From a virus (lineage: Duplodnaviria > Caudoviricetes): DNA of 64,000 nt. The notes beneath the pieces were generated by a model that was not told where the DNA came from, searched no databases, and worked only from the letters and a program-made list of their open reading frames with translations. Positions within the stretch are counted from its first letter, which is position 1. Each line of letters starts with the position of its first letter. The position numbers were made by a program, and so were the translations under genes. Shown here one piece after another: positions 132 to 64,000 of the stretch. The DNA is taken from IMG/VR virus record IMGVR_UViG_3300038393_000457, positions 1-64,000 of that record. The stretch is one strand, 5' to 3'.

Positions 132-188
132 ACCGGAAGTTTCCCTAAGTAAGCATATATAAGACTTGCTTAGAGGGAACTTCCGGTG
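132..188 (+). promoter_or_regulatory. hairpin sequestering the RBS and GTG start of the GIY-YIG gene, with late-promoter-like CTAAGTA in the 5' arm
   Basis: accggaagtttccc-taagtaag / cttgctta-gagggaacttccggt; second copy at 39381. Confidence 0.7.
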
Positions 189-827
189 TTTTTTACGATA
201 TACAAAACAACCAATAAAATTAATGGTAAATATTACCACGGTAAACATCAAACGGAGATTTTGGATGATGGTTATCTTGGTTCTGGAAGGCTTTTGCAGA
301 GAGCCATTAAGAAATATGGTTCAGAGAATTTTGTGAAAGAAATCCTGTTCATTTACGATAATGAACAAGAGATGAATGATAAAGAAAAAGAATTGGTTGA
401 AATAGGTAATCACACATACAATTTGTGTGAAGGTGGTAAAGGTGGGTTTAGTTATATTAATCGTGAAGTAATGACTACAGAAAAAAGAAAAATTTATGGT
501 TATATTAACGGTAAGAAGACAAAACCAAAAAGAGAAGGTGGTCTAAAGAATGTTTCTCTAGGATTAGGAATATGGAATCCTATCTATAAAGACAAAAGAA
601 GTTTCTGGTGTAGTAAAGCCTTTCTTGGGAAATATCATTCCGAATCTTCTAAAGAAAAAATGCGAGAAGCAAAAATAGGTAAATATACAGGCAAAAAGAA
701 TTCTCAGTATGGTACTTGTTGGATTTACCATCCACAATTAGGTAATAAGAAGATTGACAAAACAGAATTGAAGAAGTATATTGAGTTAGGTTATTCAAAA
801 GGTCGAAAGATCAAAACATCTCAATAG
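186..827 (+). CDS. Seg-like GIY-YIG homing endonuclease
   Basis: IYKTTNKINGKYYHGKH...YLGSG...AIKKYG.ENFVKEIL; NUMOD3-like C-terminal half. Confidence 0.9.
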   Translation: MFFTIYKTTNKINGKYYHGKHQTEILDDGYLGSGRLLQRAIKKYGSENFVKEILFIYDNEQEMNDKEKELVEIGNHTYNLCEGGKGGFSYINREVMTTEKRKIYGYINGKKTKPKREGGLKNVSLGLGIWNPIYKDKRSFWCSKAFLGKYHSESSKEKMREAKIGKYTGKKNSQYGTCWIYHPQLGNKKIDKTELKKYIELGYSKGRKIKTSQ

Positions 828-4658: not shown

Positions 4659-7171
4659 TGTCAGATTCCCAGTATACCTCAGTCGAGGTTGATAGAAATA
4701 AGATTTGTTACCGTGGTAGGGATGAAGAGGGGCGGGAAATCCGGAAACAGGTTTCCTATCGCCCCTCTTTGTTTGTTCCAGCGGAACTTGGTCATCATAA
4801 GACCTATGAAGGTCAACCATTAGCTCGTATTGAGTTTAATGGTATCAAAGAAGCACGTGAATACGTAAAACGGTATTCTGAAATTGGCAACTTTGATTTC
4901 TACGGTAACACCAACTATCAGTATGCATTCATTTCAGATGTTTTCACCGGTAAAATCCCTTGGGATGCTCGCCGTATTTCTGTATGGAAAATCGATATTG
5001 AAGTTGGATCAGAAAATGGTTTTCCTGATCCCGCATTTGCGTCGGAAGAAATTACTGGCATAACGATCAAGACGAATACCGATATTGTATGCTTTGGATG
5101 CGGCAATTTCACACCAAAGAATGGTGAAATCTATATCAAGTGTCGCGATGAATATGATCTAATCGAGAAGTTTATCCAGTATTGGGAAAAGAAGACACCA
5201 GACGTGGTGACAGGTTGGAATATTCGTTTCTTCGATATTCCTTATATTATCAATCGCATCAAGAGACTGACAAGCGAAGATAACGTAAAGCGTCTGTCTC
5301 CATGGAGGAACATCCGTCAACGTGAATTGACGATGTTGAACAAACAGAGTCAAGTCTATGAAATCCTTGGCATATCGGTTCTGGACTATATTGATTTGTA
5401 TCGTAAATTCGCAAAAGATGGTACATCTCGCGAATCATACGCTCTTGGCTATATCGCTCAACTAGAAATCGGTAAAACCAAGCTTGAAGGAACTGACGAG
5501 GCTGCAGCTTACACGCTTTACAAGACCGATTTCCAGAAATTCATGGAGTACAACATCCAAGACGTGATGTTGATCCAGTGGTTAGACGATAAGCTTAAGC
5601 TTCTGGAATTAGCATTCCAGATGGCTTATACAGCCAAATGTAATTTTGACGATGTTCTGTTTCAGACTCGTATGTGGGATTGCCTTGTTTTCAATCAATT
5701 CGTGGAAGATAAGATTGCAATGCCTCAGAACAAGCGGTCAGAGAAGACGGCCTTTGAAGGTGCATTCGTTAAACCACCTCAAGTTGGTATGTTCAAGTGG
5801 CTTACATCTTGGGACTTGACGTCCCTGTATCCTCATTTGATCATGCAATATGGAATCTCACCAGAGATGATATTCAACAGTGCTGATCCCGAATTGATTA
5901 AGATCAAGGGATCAGTTTCTGTTGAAGTTCTACTTGGACAGCAAATTGATCTTTCACCACTAAAGAAACATAATGTTTGTGTAACACCCAATGGTATGTT
6001 CTTTAGAACTGATCGTGGTATGGGCTTTATGCCAAAGCTCATGCATCGCATGTTCAACACTCGTAAGCAAGCAAAAGACGAAATGTTGAAATTGCAACAA
6101 AAACTTGAAACGTGTGATCCAAACGAAAAATCCGCACTAGAGTCGAAAATTGCAAGTCTTGATAATCTTCAATTGGCAATCAAGGTAACTCTTAATTCGG
6201 CATATGGTAGTTTCTCAAATCCTGGGTTTAGATTCTATGATTATAGAATTGGTCAAGCTATCACAAGTGCGGGTCAATTGTCGGTCCTTTGGTCTCAAAC
6301 CAACATCAATAGGTTCCTGAATGATTCTATGAAGACGGTATCCGAACGCGACTTTATTGTGGCATCTGATACTGATTCAATGTATATTGACATGGGTGAT
6401 ATCCTCAAGAAATTCTTTGGCATCAGCAACGATGTTCAAGAGAATATCAAGAATATCGACATGATTTGTAAGAAGGTATTGGCCCCCAAGATCAACAGTA
6501 TCTTCGAGGAACTTAAGGAATACACAAACGCTTATGAACAGAAAATGATCATGAAGCGTGAAGTTATTGCGGATATTGGTATTTGGACTTCAAAGAAACA
6601 CTATATTTTGAACATCTGGAATTCTGAAGGTGTTCAATATAAGGAGCCAAAGCTCAAGATCGTTGGTCTTGAAGCAGTGAAAGCATCGGCATATCCTAAA
6701 ATATGCCGAGAAGCAATGAAGAAAATCTTCAAGGAACTTGTAACTTCTCAATCAGAGGAGAAGGTGCAGGAAATGATTGCAAACTTCAAAGGTGAATTCT
6801 TCAAGATGCCATTGCAGGATATAGCAACTCCTCGTGGTGTAAGTGATGTTTCGGGATTTGTTGGACAGACAAAATCTGTTCCTATCCATGTCAAGGCTGC
6901 ACTCATTCACAATGAACTAATTAAGAAGAAGGGATTGACCAAAGAAATTAGAGAAATCAAGGACGGAGAAAAGCTAAAGTTTGCATATCTGAAGTTTCCT
7001 AATCCCATGCAAGCTCATGTGTGTGCGTTTCAGAACAAGCCACATAAGGCATTGGAATTAGAACAATGGGTAGATTATAATATGCAATACGAGAAGATGT
7101 TTCTTGGTCCCATGAATAATGTTTTGAATGTGATTGGTTGGTCGTCAGAAGCAAGGAATACATTATGGTAA
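4658..7171 (+). CDS. 43: family B DNA polymerase (T4 gp43-like)
   Basis: DIEV exonuclease, SWDLTSLYPH, KVTLNSAYG, SDTDS, C-terminal clamp-binding W. Confidence 0.98.
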   Translation: MSDSQYTSVEVDRNKICYRGRDEEGREIRKQVSYRPSLFVPAELGHHKTYEGQPLARIEFNGIKEAREYVKRYSEIGNFDFYGNTNYQYAFISDVFTGKIPWDARRISVWKIDIEVGSENGFPDPAFASEEITGITIKTNTDIVCFGCGNFTPKNGEIYIKCRDEYDLIEKFIQYWEKKTPDVVTGWNIRFFDIPYIINRIKRLTSEDNVKRLSPWRNIRQRELTMLNKQSQVYEILGISVLDYIDLYRKFAKDGTSRESYALGYIAQLEIGKTKLEGTDEAAAYTLYKTDFQKFMEYNIQDVMLIQWLDDKLKLLELAFQMAYTAKCNFDDVLFQTRMWDCLVFNQFVEDKIAMPQNKRSEKTAFEGAFVKPPQVGMFKWLTSWDLTSLYPHLIMQYGISPEMIFNSADPELIKIKGSVSVEVLLGQQIDLSPLKKHNVCVTPNGMFFRTDRGMGFMPKLMHRMFNTRKQAKDEMLKLQQKLETCDPNEKSALESKIASLDNLQLAIKVTLNSAYGSFSNPGFRFYDYRIGQAITSAGQLSVLWSQTNINRFLNDSMKTVSERDFIVASDTDSMYIDMGDILKKFFGISNDVQENIKNIDMICKKVLAPKINSIFEELKEYTNAYEQKMIMKREVIADIGIWTSKKHYILNIWNSEGVQYKEPKLKIVGLEAVKASAYPKICREAMKKIFKELVTSQSEEKVQEMIANFKGEFFKMPLQDIATPRGVSDVSGFVGQTKSVPIHVKAALIHNELIKKKGLTKEIREIKDGEKLKFAYLKFPNPMQAHVCAFQNKPHKALELEQWVDYNMQYEKMFLGPMNNVLNVIGWSSEARNTLW

Positions 7172-8591: not shown

Positions 8592-9064
8592 TGTCAGATA
8601 ATCCATTCGATACACAACATGAAAATTGGTTCCTAAGGTTTTGTAGAAGATTTATTCTAGCCATCTTGCTATTGGTGGCATCTATGTGTATAATACTGTT
8701 GGCTGCTAATGTTTCACATGCTCATGGCTATGCAATGTGGTTCAATCAGCCATACTATGTATCGAAGAGTGGGATACATTGCTGTGGGCCGGATGATTAT
8801 AAGTATCTAGAAGAGTGGCACGCTACTGTCGTGGAAGATGAATTTGGTTATACGGTAGATGTACCGAAGCGTAAACAGATGGTTGATAATGAATTTGGTG
8901 GGCCGGTCGAAATTGAATGGCCAGCCGATCATCATTATTTTTCGAAGAAAGAAGACTATAAACACGGTCTCTACTTCACCGAAGACCCTGACAATAAATA
9001 TGTACTATGCCTATATGGAGGCAAAATTAAATGTTTGGCAGTACCAAGAAAAACTGGAATATAA
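8591..9064 (+). CDS. membrane-anchored/secreted Cys-containing protein
   Basis: hydrophobic N-terminal segment, AHA signal site, CCGPDD. Confidence 0.6.
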   Translation: MSDNPFDTQHENWFLRFCRRFILAILLLVASMCIILLAANVSHAHGYAMWFNQPYYVSKSGIHCCGPDDYKYLEEWHATVVEDEFGYTVDVPKRKQMVDNEFGGPVEIEWPADHHYFSKKEDYKHGLYFTEDPDNKYVLCLYGGKIKCLAVPRKTGI

Positions 9065-9230
9065 AGATTGAAACGAGTATATTTCGATTGGAAATTTTGG
9101 ATACCGCTTACAATCGAGATTTGATCCATGATTTAAAAGGTGTAATGGGTCTTGATCCACAAGAAGAGTATATAAAAATCATACTAACAGAAATCGAAAA
9201 ACAACTAAGAGAATATAAGGAATAATAAAA

Positions 9231-33210: not shown

Positions 33211-33798
33211 GTGCAAATTCTTTCACTTGACAAGTCTGGGTATCCTAGAGGGTTTATTACGATCCAAAATGCAATCGAAATGATTGCGAAGGATAAAATC
33301 CTTTGGAGTCTTGGTAACCCAATTGCAACTTATCGTGGTGGTTATAACAATGATGGTGTGCGTTCCGTAATCGAAACGCCACCTATCATTGCTATCACCG
33401 GAACAGAGTTTGCAAAACAAAAGCGTTTTCCTAAAGTTATCCTGACGAACAATTCGCTTTTTAGTAGGGATCGTCATATTTGCGCTTATTGTGGTGGAAA
33501 ATTCATGCCACGAAAGCTATCACGTGATCATGTAATACCTGTTTCTCGTGGTGGTCCGAATACCTGGAAGAATGTGGTGACTGCATGTATCCCATGTAAC
33601 ACCAAGAAGGATAATCGGACCCCAGAAGAAGCTGGAATGAAACTTCTGTATGTTCCTTATGAGCCCTCTCATGCGGAACATCTAATATTGAAGAATCGCA
33701 ACATCACAGAAGATCAAATGGATTATCTATCAAACCATGTGTCGCCGGAGTTTCTCCGGCGCATGACGGATGTAGAATTATTTGGTGAGGATAAATAA
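33211..33798 (+). CDS. HNH endonuclease (McrA/HNH_5-like)
   Basis: RDRHICAYCG...DHVIPVSRGG.NTWKNVVTACIPCN.KK. Confidence 0.9.
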   Translation: MQILSLDKSGYPRGFITIQNAIEMIAKDKILWSLGNPIATYRGGYNNDGVRSVIETPPIIAITGTEFAKQKRFPKVILTNNSLFSRDRHICAYCGGKFMPRKLSRDHVIPVSRGGPNTWKNVVTACIPCNTKKDNRTPEEAGMKLLYVPYEPSHAEHLILKNRNITEDQMDYLSNHVSPEFLRRMTDVELFGEDK

Positions 33799-34919
33799 TG
33801 AAACTCGCTTTCTATAAAGTCGCACCTATGGCTGATGATGTGGACAATCTTGTTCCAATCAAATATGCTTACATGGATGGATATGTCTTTGGTGATCGTA
33901 TACTTGAAGATGTAATGTTCAAATATTGGATTGATGACAAAGGTAAATTGAAGTCTGATTTTGCTAAACCGAATGGTTATACCAAAGGTTTGAATAAAAA
34001 GAAATGGCTCAAGGAATCTATTGGTTATGTTACCGCCGTGGAAGGTGTTGTTGAATTTCAGTTAATTGAGGATGTGCTTTCTGAAGCGGTATTGTGGGAC
34101 CATGATAGATCATGGAATGATCAACCATATACATTCTTTGATGAAGAACCACGATTTGTGACTAAGTAAGGAATTATTCCCTATTAGACTAACTGGAAGG
34201 TCGCTAGACTCTGAATCTAGAAGTCCTGGTTCGAATCCAGGGTTGGGAGCCAATTCGAGGTTATCATGGAATATGGTTATCGTCTAATTAATCCATCATA
34301 TACAGAAGCCGCCGAATTGTGGCTCGCTAAATTGAATGTCGATTATGATTATGTAGATATTGGTTATTGGCGTCTCTATCGTATTCATTCGGATCAATTC
34401 AACAAGTTACCTGATGACAGAGGCCCATATATCCCGGTTGATGAAGATCAAGGTTTCGGTCTGATGGATGACCAGATAGCAGAATCTGAAGCGGAAGAGG
34501 CTGGTGGATGGATTAAGGTAGCACAATGAGAAATATATTGGAATATCCTATAACCAAAGAAGAAGTAGAGACTGTTTTTGTTGATGCTTTCAATGACCAT
34601 AATGGTGAAGTTGGTGGTCATCAACAAATGGTAATCCAGGACTTACTAGATAACTTTGATGAAATTTGGGAAAAGTATTATAAAGACAAGTTTGGATATG
34701 CCAATCAATAGTGATACATTCCTGGTAAATTCCATTATTGATTTATTGGAAGATCATGGTTTCAAAGGCTTGGACGGTCCAGCTATTGTATTCGAAATGC
34801 AATCCAGACATTGGACCGCTGAGGAAACCAGAAAAGCATATATTGAATTGTGTAATGAAGGTATTGTAACTTACGTGCCTTCTGGTCGCTACAAATTGAC
34901 TAAGTTTATACCAAGATAA
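33798..34919 (+). CDS. four small hypothetical ORFs (33798-34169, 34266-34529, 34526-34711, 34656-34919)
   Basis: ORF track with RBS/overlap coupling. Confidence 0.45.
34178..34252 (+). tRNA. trnQ: tRNA-Gln(CTG)
   Basis: ctaga-ctctgaa-tctag; GCCA. Confidence 0.9.
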
Positions 34920-35012
34920 GGATGGTTGTCAGAGTGGGTTATTGTCCGACTTTGCTAAAGTCGCGAGTGTCTGAAAAGGCCTCCATGGGTTCGAATCCCA
35001 TACCATCCTCCA
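34920..35012 (+). tRNA. trnS: tRNA-Ser(GCT)
   Basis: cgact-ttgctaa-agtcg; long variable arm; TCCA. Confidence 0.9.
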
Positions 35013-35120
35013 TTTTTTTAATTTATTTTTGTAATTTTGGTAAAAAAGAATACTAAGTAAACTCTCAAAGGCTTGACTACCTCAAATATTCTGATATTAT
35101 ATAGAAATGAAGCATTGATT

Positions 35121-35312
35121 TAGGCAGATTCATTCGCCTGTAAAGAGCATTATCGCTCACCGCTGTAAGGTTGGTTATTGAATGAATCTTCCTAAATTAA
35201 TGAATCCTCGATGCTAGTTTGTAACTGAGATTGTATCAAGAAGTGCAGGAATGATTGCAAAATTCCTGAAAAACAAACGACCCATCGGCTCCAGAGTCGT
35301 AATTCTGGAGAC
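35121..35312 (+). ncRNA. structured RNA(s) directly downstream of a sigma70-type promoter
   Basis: taggcagattcattc/gaatgaatcttccta stem and further hairpins; no ORF. Confidence 0.45.
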
Positions 35313-35320
35313 TTTACAAT

Positions 35321-35395
35321 GCACCGTTCGTCTATAGGAAGGACACTTGGCTTTCAACCAGGGCAGCAGGGGTTCGAATCCCCTACGGTGCACCA
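35321..35395 (+). tRNA. trnE: tRNA-Glu(TTC)
   Basis: cttgg-ctttcaa-ccagg; gcaccgt/acggtgc; ACCA. Confidence 0.95.
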
Positions 35396-35453
35396 ATTAC
35401 TACCCCTACCAAGGGATCGAATAAAAGATCATAACTTTGGTAGTTTCATTTAT

Positions 35454-35503
35454 GCTCGCTCGCCGTAAGGTGTGCAACTGATCGAAAGATCAAGCGAGCA
35501 CCA
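35454..35503 (+). ncRNA. 50-nt CCA-ended tRNA-minihelix mimic
   Basis: gctcgct/agcgagc + ACCA with two GNRA-capped hairpins. Confidence 0.6.
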
Positions 35504-35539
35504 ATTATAATGTCCCTATAGTGAAACTGAATAGTCAAT

Positions 35540-35617
35540 GGTGCTGTATCCCTCGACGCTACGAACGTCGTGAAAGGTAATTGGATCATGCAGGTTCGAC
35601 CCCTGTCAGCATCTCCA
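35540..35617 (+). tRNA. D-armless tRNA-Arg(ACG)-like RNA
   Basis: ggtgctg/cagcatc TCCA; cgacg-ctacgaa-cgtcg; only 7 nt between acceptor and anticodon stems. Confidence 0.7.
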
Positions 35618-36194
35618 TTATTCTATTAGGTTCTCCATATAGAAGCTTAATAGATTTTTTTACTTGATCTAATTTCTCCTGTTGTTTGATGACAACGATT
35701 GGATTCTTTGGATCAAGAAATATGTTAAGATTAGGAAGATAGAAATCTGGAAAGTATTTGTGTTCTTTCCCATTTTTATCGATCCAAGGAATTGATGTTT
35801 TTGGTTGTTCCCAAATAATATTGGCTTCATCAAGTAATTGGGCCATTTTTACTTCCCAACCAGAATCAAAGATAAAGTTTTTGTAAATTTGACGTTTTAT
35901 ACCGGAAGCATTCTTTCTTTTGACCGCGATGAAACATTGGTCAGAACAAGTTGTTCCAATTTTCTTTTGTGACGCAAAATATTTTTGGCATACAGAACAT
36001 TGTCGAAAATATACCTTGGAATTGGGTCCACAAACATGTCTCTTGCTGAAGAAGCCTCTTTTACCAATTGTTGTTGATTTTATCCTTGTATAATTACGAC
36101 CGCGTTTAAGGTTATTGTATGTTGCGGAACAAGATGAACCACAGAATTTTCTTTTTAATGGTATAAGTAAGTTGCAATTTAAACAATTATGCAT
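35586..36194 (-). CDS. PD-(D/E)XK-type homing endonuclease with N-terminal Zn-binding motifs
   Basis: CxxC repeats; DSGWE...KYFPDFYLP..NIFLDPKN. Confidence 0.8.
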   Translation of the reverse strand: MHNCLNCNLLIPLKRKFCGSSCSATYNNLKRGRNYTRIKSTTIGKRGFFSKRHVCGPNSKVYFRQCSVCQKYFASQKKIGTTCSDQCFIAVKRKNASGIKRQIYKNFIFDSGWEVKMAQLLDEANIIWEQPKTSIPWIDKNGKEHKYFPDFYLPNLNIFLDPKNPIVVIKQQEKLDQVKKSIKLLYGEPNRIMEMLTGVEPA

Positions 36195-36526
36195 TATAAA
36201 TCTCCTTCTAAATGCTAATTGTATTTAGTAAAATTTCGACTCAAGATGTGGGTTCGAGTCCTGCTAGGGACGCCATTTAAGAGGTTGTTATGACAGATTG
36301 GGGAACAGGTTGCACAGAGACGAGTGATGATTGTACTCTTCACAACCTTCATTGTGGTTATCCAAATTATCCTAAAGGTAAAAGGGATAAAGCAAAGATC
36401 AAAACTCCAACGGAGTTGATCGTGGAAAGAATGAGAAGTCTTGGTCTAGCTATCAATGACGCTCAGAGAATCGCCAATGAAGTTGTTCATGTACTTGGAC
36501 AAAATGGTTATTTGAAATAGAAATTT

Positions 36527-36606
36527 GGGGGACGGGACTGCTTGGGGTGGTCGTCGCACTTGCAATGCGAATATTCAGCAGGGTTCAAATCCCTGGTTCT
36601 CCACCA
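36527..36606 (+). tRNA. trnA: tRNA-Ala(TGC)
   Basis: G3-U70 pair; tcgca-cttgcaa-tgcga; ACCA. Confidence 0.9.
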
Positions 36607-36608
36607 AA

Positions 36609-36727
36609 ATTAACATACACCAGCGCCGCGTGGTTATACTAATCACCTAAGACGTGAAAGCATTCGAAAGAATGGGCCTGTTGGAGCAAAATACGGTGCG
36701 GATAAACTTGCTTTCATGTATGTTAAT
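36609..36727 (+). ncRNA. compact pseudoknotted RNA candidate
   Basis: 11-bp closing stem; crossing gcgccg/cggtgc and tgaaagca/tgctttca helices. Confidence 0.55.
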
Positions 36728-37018
36728 ATTCTAGAAATAGTCAGCTAACAACTTCCCCGTAGAAGGGGTGGCCAGTCACAAATCGACGGCCTGACAAATG
36801 GTTAGCACAATTCAGAGCTTAGACCGGGATCGATTCACTCAGAAGCTATCAGTGACCGGCTATGTGGTTGTTGTCTCGCAATGCTTCTGGCACGCAACCA
36901 GAAATTATGCAGGTACCATTCGCGTGAAGATTTGGCTAAGCTAATGTGATAATCTGAGGCCTGCACCACATTAGATGTTGACAGTAAGTAGAGTTTTTGT
37001 TAGTATGTGTTTGTTCGT

Positions 37019-37331
37019 TCTTAGAGAAATGCCGTGACAGAGTGATCACGTTTTACTTTTCGGACGGAATGTGCCCTGGTAAACAACTACGGGGCGGGAG
37101 TAGGAGTGAGAAGGATAAAGTCCTTGAAGACTGGAAAGTATGTTGTAGCGTCCAGTTGGAGAGAGCAACACGACAGAACATAGTCTAGAAAAGCGTGTTG
37201 TATCCGTTAATAACGGATGAGTCGTTGATAATGTACTAAGCGGCCACTTGGTAAGTTTGAGACTCTGACTGATTAATCCCCTCATGTTTGAAACTCGGAG
37301 GCCTTGACAGCCACCCGGCATTTCTCTAAGA
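37019..37331 (+). ncRNA. 313-nt multi-hairpin RNA candidate
   Basis: perfect 16-bp terminal helix; TTGACA-N17-TAGTAT promoter upstream. Confidence 0.7.
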
Positions 37332-37454
37332 TCGAATGATTGTAGACGCTAAGGTTTAATTTGACCTCAGAAGTGAAAACCAATAAAGATTGTTGGTGAT
37401 AGTATCTTCGATTACGAGACGATTTGAAAGGGTCGGTTCTACATTTGTTTTTAT

Positions 37455-37529
37455 ACGGGAGTAGCTCAGTGAAAGAGCGTCTGGCATCAGGTCAGAAGGT
37501 CGGTGGTTCAAGTCCATCCTTCCGTGCCA
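37455..37529 (+). tRNA. tRNA with apparent TCA anticodon (A33, G37); suppressor-like or degenerate
   Basis: tctgg-catcagg-tcaga; acgggag/cttccgt; GCCA. Confidence 0.6.
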
Positions 37530-37534
37530 ATTAT

Positions 37535-37589
37535 GGAGGGCTTCCTAAGGGTATGGGAGCTAAGTGCGCTAGAGGTGCAACCTCCACCA
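37535..37589 (+). ncRNA. 55-nt CCA-ended two-hairpin mini RNA
   Basis: ggagg/cctcc + ACCA. Confidence 0.45.
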
Positions 37590-37656
37590 GTTTTTGATAT
37601 AGACAACGACGATGATGATCTTACCTGTATTTGGAGAAATTTAATTTCTTCTTAGT

Positions 37657-37729
37657 ACACCAGTGTTCCGACAGGTAAGGGAGACGTCTTTTAAACGTCT
37701 ATATGTGGGTTCAAATCCCACCTGGTGTA
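37657..37729 (+). tRNA. trnK: tRNA-Lys(TTT) within a 21-bp inverted repeat, no CCA
   Basis: gacgt-cttttaa-acgtc. Confidence 0.8.
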
Positions 37730-38442
37730 CTAAGAAGAAATTTTTTCTTTACAGTATTATAATTAGCACCTCTTGGACTTTTTCCTTGTGCAATAAGATA
37801 TTGACGAATAGAAGGATATCCTTCTATTTCAATTTTCTTGGTGTTCTTTCTACGTCTTATATTTCTACCTCTCCATGTATCTGTTTGTGAATGACAATTT
37901 GGGCATAGAAATTCCACATTTTCTCTTGTGTTATTATGATGATTACCATCCTTATGTTCAAATTCCAATGTAATTGGTTTACCTAACCAAGTGTCATTAT
38001 GACATTTATTGCACCTATTTTCTTGATCTCTTAATACCTGTTCTTTAAGTTCTTTGACATATGATAATGGATTTCTTTCTCGTCTTTTTGCATGTTCTAT
38101 TTTCCATTTAAGACCATCCATTAATCTTTTATGTTCCATTGAACAAAATTTCTTTTGTTTTCTGCTAAGTATATTATAACAACCATCAATTCCACAATAA
38201 CAATTTTTATTATCTAAATCCTTTAGACGTTGGAAATTGTTGACTCTGGTGGAACAACTATTGCAGCAATATTTTGGATTTCTTGTGTTTTTGTTGCATT
38301 CTTGGTTCATACATTGATGTGGTTGTCTCATTATTTGACTTTCATTTTTTGTTATGTTAGTATTTACCATACTAAATAATTGATCAAAAGTCAATTGGAT
38401 ATTATAAATAGGATTTCCGGCACGATGTAATGGTGCCGCCAA
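37711..38442 (-). CDS. HNH homing endonuclease with Zn motifs (true start probably internal)
   Basis: RCNKC..W.GKPITLEFEHKDGNHHNNTRENVEFLCPNCHSQT. Confidence 0.9.
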   Translation of the reverse strand: MAAPLHRAGNPIYNIQLTFDQLFSMVNTNITKNESQIMRQPHQCMNQECNKNTRNPKYCCNSCSTRVNNFQRLKDLDNKNCYCGIDGCYNILSRKQKKFCSMEHKRLMDGLKWKIEHAKRRERNPLSYVKELKEQVLRDQENRCNKCHNDTWLGKPITLEFEHKDGNHHNNTRENVEFLCPNCHSQTDTWRGRNIRRRKNTKKIEIEGYPSIRQYLIAQGKSPRGANYNTVKKKFLLSTPGGI

Positions 38443-38760
38443 GAACGTCGGTCAGATATGGCCGATTGGATCGCTCAGGTGGTCCTAGGTTCTTGGACAA
38501 GTTTTGCGGTAGCTTACGGATGTTTGTCTAGGTCGAAAGACTAAATTTCGGAGTGTGAAGGAAGCACGGTGGTCTTTTAGACGACCAGAATCGGATCGTT
38601 ACCGGTCGAAATTTTCCGCAACTAAATAGACAACCGTAGTGTGAAGAACACGTAAATCGGATGAATTTTTGGCATTGAGTGTTTGGGAAAGTATGATATC
38701 TGACTGCACTGGTTGATGCATTCCAGACGGTCTAACTCAACTATCACCGTTGGTTATCAT
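38411..38760 (+). ncRNA. ornate structured RNA candidate downstream of late promoter TATAAATA (38403)
   Basis: more than 10 helices, multibranch junctions, one pseudoknot; no ORF. Confidence 0.7.
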
Positions 38761-38843
38761 GGTACATGGTGGAAATGGTATACACGCACGTTTTGAAGAC
38801 GGGCGCTCGAAAGAGATTGCAGGTTCGAATCCTGTTGTACACT
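38760..38843 (+). pseudogene. degenerate class II tRNA (Leu-like D arm, TGA in loop)
   Basis: D and T arms intact, acceptor mispaired, no CCA. Confidence 0.6.
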
Positions 38844-38870
38844 GTGACGATCCATTCACTTGATTTTTGT

Positions 38871-38944
38871 TGCTCTTTCGTCTAACGGCAGGACCGGTGC
38901 CTTTGACTCACCAGATTGAGGTTCGAATCCTTGAAGAGCAGCCA
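38871..38944 (+). tRNA. trnQ: tRNA-Gln(TTG)
   Basis: loop ctttgac; tgctctt/aagagca; GCCA. Confidence 0.85.
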
Positions 38945-39002
38945 ATTCTCGTTTTAAGGTAAGGGTTTTCCTCAGCGTTAAAAATCCTTCCAACAGGATT
39001 AT

Positions 39003-39077
39003 ACTCTCGTCGTCTAGTGGCTAAGGCGCGCGCTTGATAGGCGTGAAAACGGGGATCGAAACCTCGCGGGAGTACCA
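39003..39077 (+). tRNA. trnI: tRNA-Ile(GAT)
   Basis: cgcgc-ttgatag-gcgtg; ACCA. Confidence 0.8.
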
Positions 39078-39093
39078 ATTTAAGAGGTATATT

Positions 39094-39300
39094 ATGTCTG
39101 ATAATAGCAGTAGTTCTAGTAGCGGTGGTATTGGTGTTTTCGGTTTGCTTGGTGTTGCATTCGTTGTTCTCAAGCTGACTGGATATATTGATTGGTCTTG
39201 GTGGTTAGTCACTCTACCATTTTGGGGTGGATTGGCTTTTGTTATTGCCTTTCTACTGATTATCTTCCTCGGTGCGGTTTTCTTAGAAATGAGAAAATAA
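39094..39300 (+). CDS. small two-helix membrane protein
   Basis: GIGVFGLLGVAFVVLKLTGYIDWSWWLVTLPFW. Confidence 0.7.
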   Translation: MSDNSSSSSSGGIGVFGLLGVAFVVLKLTGYIDWSWWLVTLPFWGGLAFVIAFLLIIFLGAVFLEMRK

Positions 39301-39303
39301 GTA

Positions 39304-39375
39304 GTCTCTCAGGTGTTGCAGGCGGCACAAGACTGTGGTATAGTTTAGGGCGCGTTTCGATTACGCGGAGAGGCA
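39304..39375 (+). tRNA. trnT: tRNA-Thr(GGT)-like, atypical loop, no CCA
   Basis: agact-gtggtat-agttt; gtctctc/gagaggc. Confidence 0.65.
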
Positions 39376-39380
39376 CATAG

Positions 39381-39437
39381 ACGGTGGATTTCCCTAAGTA
39401 AGCATAGGTAAGACTTGCTTAAAGGAAATCCACCGTG
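39381..39437 (+). promoter_or_regulatory. second copy of the RBS/GTG-sequestering hairpin
   Basis: acggtggatttcc-ctaagtaag / cttgctta-aaggaaatccaccgt. Confidence 0.7.
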
Positions 39438-40064
39438 TTCTATACGATTTATAAGATAACTAATAAAATTAATGGAAAATATTACATTGGTAAACATCAA
39501 ACTGAAAATTTAGATGATGGTTATTTTGGTTCTGGTAAATTAATCAAAAAAGCCATTAAAAAATATGGCATAGAAAATTTTATTAAAGAAATCTTGTTCG
39601 TGTATGATAATGAACAAGAAATGAATGAGAAAGAAAAGGAATTAGTAACCTTAAGAGAAGATAGTTATAACCTTTGTCCTGGTGGACAAGGTGGATTTGG
39701 TTATATTAATAAAATAATATCGAAAGATGATAGATCAAAATATGGTAAAATTGGCGGCATCAAAATATCCACAGAAATTCAAACAAAAGGATTGTTCTTC
39801 AAAAATCTTACCAACAAATTTTCTAAAGGAAATCCATACCGATTTACTAAAGAAAATAATTACATGGCAGGTAAACAACATTCCTTAGAAGTGAAGAAAA
39901 AAATTGGTGAAGCGAATTCTTTACATCAGTCTGGTAAAAAGAATTCTCAATATGGTACTTGTTGGATATATCATCCACAACTAGGTAATAAGAAGATTGA
40001 CAAAGAAGAACTAAATAAATATATTGAATTGGGCTATATTAAAGGCCGTCAAAAGTGGTATTAG
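39435..40064 (+). CDS. Seg-like GIY-YIG homing endonuclease, paralog of 186-827
   Basis: IYKITNKINGKYYIGKH; shared C-terminus QYGTCWIYHPQLGNKKIDK. Confidence 0.9.
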   Translation: MFYTIYKITNKINGKYYIGKHQTENLDDGYFGSGKLIKKAIKKYGIENFIKEILFVYDNEQEMNEKEKELVTLREDSYNLCPGGQGGFGYINKIISKDDRSKYGKIGGIKISTEIQTKGLFFKNLTNKFSKGNPYRFTKENNYMAGKQHSLEVKKKIGEANSLHQSGKKNSQYGTCWIYHPQLGNKKIDKEELNKYIELGYIKGRQKWY

Positions 40065-40085
40065 AGTTTGTAGAATGAGATTTGC

Positions 40086-40160
40086 TCCATCCGGACGATC
40101 AAGGTGAACGTGCTCGCCTGTTAAGCGAGATTAAGACAGGTTCGATGCCTGTGGATGGAG
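40086..40160 (+). tRNA. trnN: tRNA-Asn(GTT), no CCA
   Basis: ctcgc-ctgttaa-gcgag. Confidence 0.85.
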
Positions 40161-40361
40161 CTAATCTCATTCAATAATTTTGGAGTTGTGATGAATAAGT
40201 TGTTGAATGCCTTTGAACGTTGGATGTGCGAATATCCACCCCTGTTGGATGACACCAAGGATATGAATGAACGTCCTGGTGGTTTTTGGACCTATCGTGC
40301 GAAGAAAGCATATCCACCTGGTCGCGGTCCAGAAAAATATTGGGATGATTTAGAAAAGAAT

Positions 40362-63475: not shown

Positions 63476-63925
63476 AATACCTCAAAGTTAAGATGTCATA
63501 GCTCTAACAGCGACCACAAAGAAAGTCAAGAAGAACGATATGCCTCAGAAACCTCCTGCTCAGTATGCGTCCTGTCGGGGTTCCTCCGGTAAATCGCCAT
63601 GACTTGATCGTGTGTCAAGGCGCCTTTCATGGCTCTTGCCCAAGTCAAGGAATCAGGGTAGGGTATAAAAGAAGTGTTCTTGGCGACTTCCACCGACGGC
63701 TTCTTGGCAGGAGCCAGCATCATCTCACGACAGCGGTTGACTTTCATCCGGTCCATGAAAGTCTCCTTTCGAGACTTGTCTACCTTGGAGGTTTCCCTAA
63801 AAGAAAGGGGAAGAAAGAAAAAGAGAAAAAGAAAGAAGGGGAAAGAAAGTGCGGAGCATAACTCCACGGAGTCCAAAAGTCAACCCCTTGTCAAGGCCTC
63901 CACGCAAATAAATCTGTGGGTAACT

Positions 63926-63999
63926 TCCTATGCGTAGTATTCCTATGCGCAACAATGGCGCTCTATACGCAATTCTGGTCTCCAATCTTGCGCATAGGA
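63926..63999. repeat. iteron-like TCCTATGCGCA repeats in both orientations
   Basis: copies at 63926, 63941, 63962 (degenerate), 63989 (inverted). Confidence 0.55.
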
Positions 64000-64000
64000 C

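Follow-up and report, generated by a model that had tools for sequence, protein, structure and literature searches.

A segment of 313 nt (37019-37331) in the tRNA district of a T4-like phage is bounded by a perfect inverted repeat, and the question that it raises is whether it is a gene for a noncoding RNA (ncRNA) or an element of another kind. A preliminary description had taken it for a discrete, early-expressed ncRNA with its own promoter. The window analyzed here (64,000 nt) covers the first 64 kb of a virus contig from IMG/VR that is 83.8 kb long and, by CheckV, 47% complete. Genes including those for DNA polymerase and ribonucleotide reductase assign the virus to the T4-like myoviruses; the DNA polymerase has no relative of >45% identity in the phage collection or IMG/VR. 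The window carries 31 tRNA genes, all on the + strand, and most of these lie within an RNA district at ~30.9 to 47 kb, where HNH and other homing endonuclease genes are interspersed among them. The element sits in an 848-nt ORF-free gap of this district, between tRNA-Ala (36527-36606) and a tRNA with the anticodon UCA, tRNA(UCA) (37455-37529). Elsewhere in the contig, a stretch at ~63500-66000 (G000; 63500-64000 of the window plus positions 1-2000 of L212) is GC rich, reaching 56% compared with ~40% for the genome, and contains neither a credible standard-code ORF nor anything matched by Rfam.

Inspection of the segment ends confirmed the terminal repeat of the preliminary description: TCTTAGAGAAATGCCG at 37019-37034 recurs without mismatch on the - strand at 37316-37331. 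This 16-mer has no further site in the window at ≤3 mismatches and no other copy in the 83.8-kb contig. The arms lengthen outward past one T/T mismatch by 4 extra pairs, giving a 21-nt 5' arm (37014-37034, + strand) around the perfect core and, as its partner in the inverted repeat, a 21-nt 3' arm (37316-37336, + strand); over this length, they are 95% complementary. A perfect 16-bp inverted repeat within 500 nt was found in 0/100 dinucleotide-preserving shuffles of the 64-kb window, and the repeat exceeds chance. At the RNA level, the arms would form a closing helix of 20 pairs in 21 positions, and the predicted pair probability was at least 0.95 in all transcript contexts tried (328 to 1,234 nt, with the 3' end at 37340 or 37840 or with the 5' start at 36607). 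The predicted duplex is about two helical turns long and lies within one transcript, which is the size expected of an RNase III processing stem. It has no G-U pairs. A helix that has neither G-U pairs nor comparative support leaves selection at the RNA level unproven, and the perfect repeat could just as well be young and neutral.

The interior of the element (37035-37315, + strand; 281 nt) is ORF free; it contains local hairpins, but its folding energy is equal to that of shuffled sequence. The whole 313 nt folds with -102 kcal/mol, corresponding to z = -4.2 on the + strand and z = -3.4 on the reverse strand, whereas the interior alone yields z = -0.60 (+ strand) and -0.14 (- strand) against shuffles. 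The z score of the whole therefore comes from the closing helix. The six internal hairpins that had been listed earlier are all present in the sequence, and five of them appear in the minimum-free-energy fold, but no meaning was borne out for them, since the interior folds like its shuffles. Perfect hairpins of at least 7 bp occur twice in the interior; the genome-wide rate is ~1 per 281 nt, and one-quarter of 281-nt stretches hold two or more. The hairpin loops, read by eye, contain no recognizable stable motifs.

The segment is noncoding. A - strand ORF (37046-37321; 91 aa) spans nearly the whole interval between the arms, and the almost exact fit of this open frame to that interval is what speaks for a small protein gene, which could otherwise be sought in the + strand ORFs of 25 to 48 aa. 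The latter are unconvincing, and the antisense ORF has a codon log-odds of -0.24 per codon, compared with -0.02 for shadow ORFs and +0.2 to +0.47 for real genes of the phage. It has no Pfam or PHROG match, its only match among 5.8 billion protein clusters is to itself, and gene callers left the interval empty on sister assemblies. On this evidence, we find a protein product hardly credible.

The Rfam scan suggested in the preliminary description assigned the element to no family: the Rfam 15 gathering-score matches in the window were tRNAs only. The Rfam 15 models searched took in group I intron, RNase P RNA, tmRNA, 6S, GOLLD, ROOL, and HEARO, and at E ≤ 10, the interval 36600-37500 gave only noise, consisting of CssrA at 16.9 bits (cutoff, 93) and two snoRNA models. 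ARAGORN reported no tmRNA. Several known RNA types were also considered individually and rejected. The sequences GAAGACUGG ... ACAGAACAUAGUCU look like P7/J8-7 of a group I intron by eye, but a single hairpin stands in the place of P4-P6, Rfam returned no match, and neither a split tRNA (ARAGORN, introns of ≤900 nt) nor a split ORF surrounds the element. In bacterial RNase P RNA, CR-I (GGAAAGUCC) pairs with CR-V (ACAGAAnnnGGCUUA) as P4, near the 3' end; the element contains AAAGUCC and ACGACAGAAC, but these lie ~55 nt apart, are not complementary, and are followed by another 150 nt, and the model gave no match. A retron msr-msd RNA was dismissed on the basis that the 83.8-kb contig has no RVT_1 match and that the neighbors are tRNAs and HNH endonucleases. 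Motifs resembling the 1067 and 1095 loops, as in a mimic of the 23S GTPase-associated center, were absent from 37014-37336 at ≤3 mismatches, although this is a weak test.

As for the promoter ascribed to the element, TTGACA-N17-TAGTAT is indeed present at 36978-37006 on the + strand. This sigma-70-like site, here called P1, has a TG extension one base ahead of the -10 hexamer, and its predicted start (~37013) lies 1 base 5' of the 5' arm. Sigma-70-like sites are not enriched in the surrounding 7-kb region (20 observed and 20.7 expected), and since consensus-like promoters are as frequent in shuffled sequence, P1 is a candidate only. The term "early-expressed," which was derived only from the match to a sigma-70-like consensus, thus denotes a putative property. 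A second site of this type, P2 (TTGACA-N17-TAAGAT; 37304-37332, + strand), has its -35 hexamer in the interior and its -10 hexamer inside the 3' arm, and its predicted start (~37339) lies three bases beyond the helix. Downstream of P1 and P2, the first terminator-like site is at 37806-37839 (+ strand; hairpin, 37806-37829), after tRNA-Lys; it resembles an intrinsic terminator, with a 10-bp stem and a T-rich tail. As no terminator directly follows the helix, an RNA of just these 313 nt could arise only by processing. ORF-free sequence also fills the 407 nt from tRNA-Ala to P1 (36607-37013), which show no folding excess (z = +0.26) and have nothing similar in relatives. Two homing endonuclease paralogues in the window (186-827 and 39435-40064) share near-identical internal sequence, and the TTGACA-N17-TATATT found within both reflects coding similarity, not a promoter.

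Homologue searches gave no second, divergent version of the element. No blastn match was obtained in phage or plasmid collections, scans of IMG/VR with 16-mers and 14-mers returned chance matches only, and neither a neighbor-protein scan nor a scan with the P1 29-mer found the element in metagenome contigs. The pattern of arms plus gap has no copy in 185,579 species genomes, and the contig contains no paralogue. Relatives were reached through ThyX (thymidylate synthase), which is encoded 6.5 kb downstream of the element. An identical ThyX is present on 12 to 13 contigs from several samples. One of these, an independent assembly from another sample, was read as DNA and proved to be 100% identical over 33290-39520, in the same orientation. 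In the next relatives, ThyX identity is only ~70%; among them, only L202 and L203 are syntenic, their tRNA genes and flanking genes being arranged in the same order. In L202, the gap between tRNA-Ala and tRNA-Lys(UUU) is occupied by a gene for a membrane protein of 92 aa, which has a good ribosome-binding site, and in L203, the corresponding gap contains ~570 nt of other ORF-free DNA and a homologous 93-aa gene. By nhmmer, blastn, and tblastx, L202 and L203 contain no element, no closing helix, no tRNA(UCA), and nothing similar to 36607-37454. The tRNA-Ala-to-tRNA-Lys slot differs in all three related phages.

These comparisons bear directly on the ncRNA proposal. Covariation among homologues had been named as a way to check it, and no homologue with compensatory changes was found, the element being absent from L202 and L203 and the other copy being 100% identical. 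A lack of conservation of the terminal helix had been named beforehand as grounds for refutation, and the helix is missing from both of the closest syntenic relatives, so that the ncRNA gene proposal fails on this count. A degenerate-gene remnant was also considered and rejected: tblastx against the relatives and against the phage's own genome revealed nothing, and the 92-aa gene of the relatives is not detectable in the contig. Two further observations concern L203. Its tRNA district encodes a 114-aa protein with a release factor (RF-1) domain (8808-9152), and the ORF-free part of its tRNA-Ala-to-tRNA-Lys gap contains, at ~1420-1505, a noncanonical tRNA-like sequence, not called by ARAGORN, in which a T arm (GGTTCGACTCC) and a terminal CCA can be recognized.

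The element is not the only helix-forming sequence in its surroundings. Of the five best inverted repeats in the 64-kb window, four, including that of the element, fall within 35.1 to 40.2 kb. The other three are RNA helices of 21 to 25 bp, formed around tRNA-Lys, around tRNA-Asn, and in a hairpin that relatives conserve. This hairpin, of ~90 nt, lies 2 kb upstream of the element, between tRNA-Ser(GCU) and tRNA-Glu (35113-35202), and occurs also at L202 2830-2916 and L203 552-639. Its stem of 21 to 23 bp (23-nt arms) is conserved in the three phages: 97% of cells are paired, and in six pairs both partners have changed. These values were reached in no more than 1/500 shuffles, and slid controls collapsed. 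Its recovery in both relatives means that the comparison can detect conserved RNA at this locus. The hairpin has no Rfam match. Its inner hairpin appears to covary (GAGC/GCUC, GAAC/GUUC, and CCAA/UUGG), and its loop is loosely 23S H44-like, AGCATTATCGCTCAC having 3 differences from the motif used for comparison.

Downstream, tRNA-Lys(UUU) (37643-37742, + strand) lies inside a perfect 21-bp leader/trailer helix that prolongs its acceptor stem, and the acceptor stem of tRNA-Asn(GUU) (40068-40177) runs into a 25-nt, 88% leader-trailer helix. Unlike most other tRNAs, these two have no encoded CCA. The tRNA-Lys helix is missing from L202 and L203 and is thus likewise lineage specific, so absence from relatives alone does not rule out a role at the RNA level. 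A leader-trailer extension is borne in L202 by tRNA-Gln(UUG) (5203-5309), which indicates that the helix feature moves between tRNAs in different lineages. Taken with the long inverted repeats of the district, the helices around tRNA-Lys and tRNA-Asn indicate that helices some two turns long recur at the RNA level in the RNA district. The motif T[TA]AGA(A)GAAAT is common to the arms of the element and of tRNA-Lys, which account for four of its six occurrences in the contig; both arms are rich in TTC/GAA, and we treat this sharing as no more than an observation. Past the element, the first gene is tRNA(UCA) (37455-37529, + strand), which is opal suppressor-like and scores 50.9 bits to the tRNA model. 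In its anticodon loop, read by eye, A replaces U before the anticodon. Between tRNA(UCA) and tRNA-Lys, at 37535-37589, there is a short stem-closed RNA ending in ACCA (GGAGG...CCTCC-ACCA).

Our preferred reading, to which we assign a tentative probability of about 40%, is that a short RNA operon lies in the hypervariable tRNA-Ala-to-tRNA-Lys slot, with the element as its lineage-specific noncoding leader module. The operon would comprise, in order, P1, the element, tRNA(UCA), the small spacer RNA, tRNA-Lys(UUU), and the terminator. Host RNA polymerase would initiate at P1 (~37013) and stop at the terminator-like site at 37806-37839. The first 21 nt of the transcript would pair with 37316-37336 to form a 20-bp duplex, which may bury the 5' end and thereby protect the RNA. 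The duplex has the length of an RNase III substrate, and a cut there would separate the leader from the tRNAs. P2, with its -10 hexamer in the 3' arm, may offer a leaderless route to the same tRNAs. No function is implied for the excised RNA.

This leader reading builds on features that are seen directly, namely, the repeat and its statistical excess, the promoter- and terminator-like sites, the noncoding status, and the absence from relatives. Transcription, helix formation in vivo, and cleavage are inferred. In favor of the leader reading, the predicted start of P1 immediately precedes the 5' arm, that of P2 comes just after the 3' arm, and tRNA-Lys is followed by the sole terminator-like site; the clustering of long RNA helices in this 5-kb district points the same way. 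Variable regions in T4-like genomes have been described as undergoing promoter-flanked modular shuffling (PMC4122927), and the turnover of the slot between lineages fits such shuffling. Against the leader reading, promoter-like sites occur at the shuffled frequency, and the interior is free of any sign of selected structure. No RNase III gene was found in the 83.8-kb contig. Overall, the element looks like a lineage-specific transcribed spacer and not like a conserved RNA gene; the sequence observation in the preliminary description is sound, and its reading as an ncRNA gene is not established.

Two other explanations address the same repeat in different ways. In one, the segment has no selected function but is a young insertion, a MITE-like remnant, or the product of a template-switch duplication, too recent for its terminal repeats to have decayed. 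Perfect Watson-Crick arms around an unremarkable interior, lineage specificity in a slot that turns over between relatives, and homing endonuclease genes on all sides are in keeping with such an insertion. A MITE or transposon remnant would be expected to do more than carry terminal repeats, but we found no clear target-site duplication at the element ends and only the single copy in the contig, with none in the 185,579 species genomes, plasmids, and phages. Furthermore, the long inverted repeats found elsewhere in the vicinity form RNA helices. We regard a neutral origin as rather unlikely on balance. The discrete ncRNA of the preliminary description, a trans-acting phage RNA of ~310 nt made from P1, stabilized by the terminal helix, and having its own function, keeps several of its premises: the segment is noncoding, lies on the tRNA strand, begins near the P1 start, and has ends with a predicted pairing probability of at least 0.95. 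This architecture of repeat, P1, and predicted helix is common to the ncRNA and leader readings. Apart from the setting among tRNA genes, in which T4-like phages have stable RNAs without an assigned function, it is the only positive evidence. What found no support is the standing of the segment as a discrete functional RNA, as the interior has no excess structure, no Rfam family matches even at E ≤ 10, no homologue was found in any collection searched, and the two syntenic relatives lack the element but do keep the neighboring RNA hairpin. Such a gene is, in our judgment, unlikely.

The remaining explanations place the function of the arms in DNA or in control of the neighboring tRNA. In an invertible promoter switch, the arms would recombine and the 281-bp interior would be flipped together with the -35 hexamer of P2, turning off P2 and hence tRNA(UCA) and tRNA-Lys. 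A 16- to 21-bp inverted repeat bounding a ~300-bp segment that holds half a promoter has the geometry of such a switch, and flipping would bring TTGACA together with TAAGAA at the opposite side, with a 3/6 match left over at the -35 position of P2. Nevertheless, the 83.8-kb contig, which represents 47% of the genome, encodes neither a serine nor a tyrosine recombinase (Resolvase and Phage_integrase domains), and the independently assembled contig from another sample, 100% identical, shows the segment in the same orientation. Invertible promoter switches are not known from T4-like phages, and we consider inversion improbable. An even slighter chance attaches to the notion that the arms are paired operators, with the same 16- to 21-bp sequence placed at P1 (+2 to +22) and at P2 (-24 to -4) for one looping repressor. 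Each arm does overlap a promoter-like site, and the arm sequence is found nowhere else in the contig, but the arms differ in position and are opposite in orientation relative to P1 and P2, no regulator was identified, and there is no dyad symmetry inside an arm.

A bolder proposal is that the segment is a switch gating the adjacent tRNA(UCA), either by DNA inversion of the half-promoter P2 or by a closing helix that decides tRNA maturation from P1 transcripts. If this were true, the phage would gain timed control of UGA read-through, but we rate it as improbable, on a par with inversion itself. The related possibility that the phage reads TGA as sense is not supported. Stop-to-stop ORFs of at least 150 aa cover 36% of the 58- to 84-kb region under the standard code and 78% with TGA read through. 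However, the long read-through frames overlap each other and have no family matches, the standard code resolves the region into a - strand block with ORFs of 50 to 140 aa and good codon usage, and TGA is the stop codon of 23/69 credible genes.

The main value of the analysis is negative: a perfect closing helix and a consensus promoter are insufficient for calling an ncRNA gene when the interior is random-like and relatives are without the element. If the helix is a signal for RNA processing or stability, the element would be another case of phage tRNA districts assembled from helix-closed modules that are gained and lost between close lineages. This would be useful for the annotation of tRNA districts and would introduce no new principle; the element would matter more only if it controlled the neighboring suppressor-like tRNA.

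Several known systems can be compared with the element. The tRNA gene cluster of phage T4 has small stable RNAs, known as species 1 and 2 (rnaC/rnaD). Like these, the element is ORF free, co-oriented, and located inside a T4-like tRNA cluster; unlike them, it is about twice as long and lacks processing signals (an encoded CCA, for example). A DNA comparison with the phage collection, in which T4 should be represented, gave no similar record. GOLLD and ROOL, the large phage ncRNAs beside tRNA genes (Rfam), share with it the phage genome, the tRNA neighborhood, and the lack of an ORF, but the element is much shorter, lacks their conserved ornate structure, and matched neither model at E ≤ 10. 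It also resembles fimS and the invertons of gut bacteria, in which inverted repeats of 16 to 21 bp bound ~300 bp with promoter sequence. The fimS switch, at 314 bp, is comparable in size; unlike these systems, the element has no invertase that we could find in the 83.8-kb contig and has been seen in only one orientation.

RNase III cleaves the leader-trailer stems of stable-RNA operons, as in rRNA operons and in phage T7 early RNA. The element's stem is not conserved in relatives, its cleavage is predicted only, and the RNA it encloses has no recognizable function or excess structure; in common with rRNA leader-trailer stems, however, it would place a duplex of ~20 bp between the flanks of an RNA module, within a longer transcript and beside tRNA genes. 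A further parallel is provided by PeSL cassettes, promoter-plus-stem-loop motifs that are repeated at many sites of T4-like genomes and flank variable modules (PMC4122927, PMC2839356). Unlike PeSL, the repeat of the element is inverted and unique to one site, and no repeated stem-loop consensus was found, but here, too, a variable part of the genome contains a lineage-specific module with sigma-70 promoters close to consensus (TTGACA-N17-TAnnAT) on both sides.
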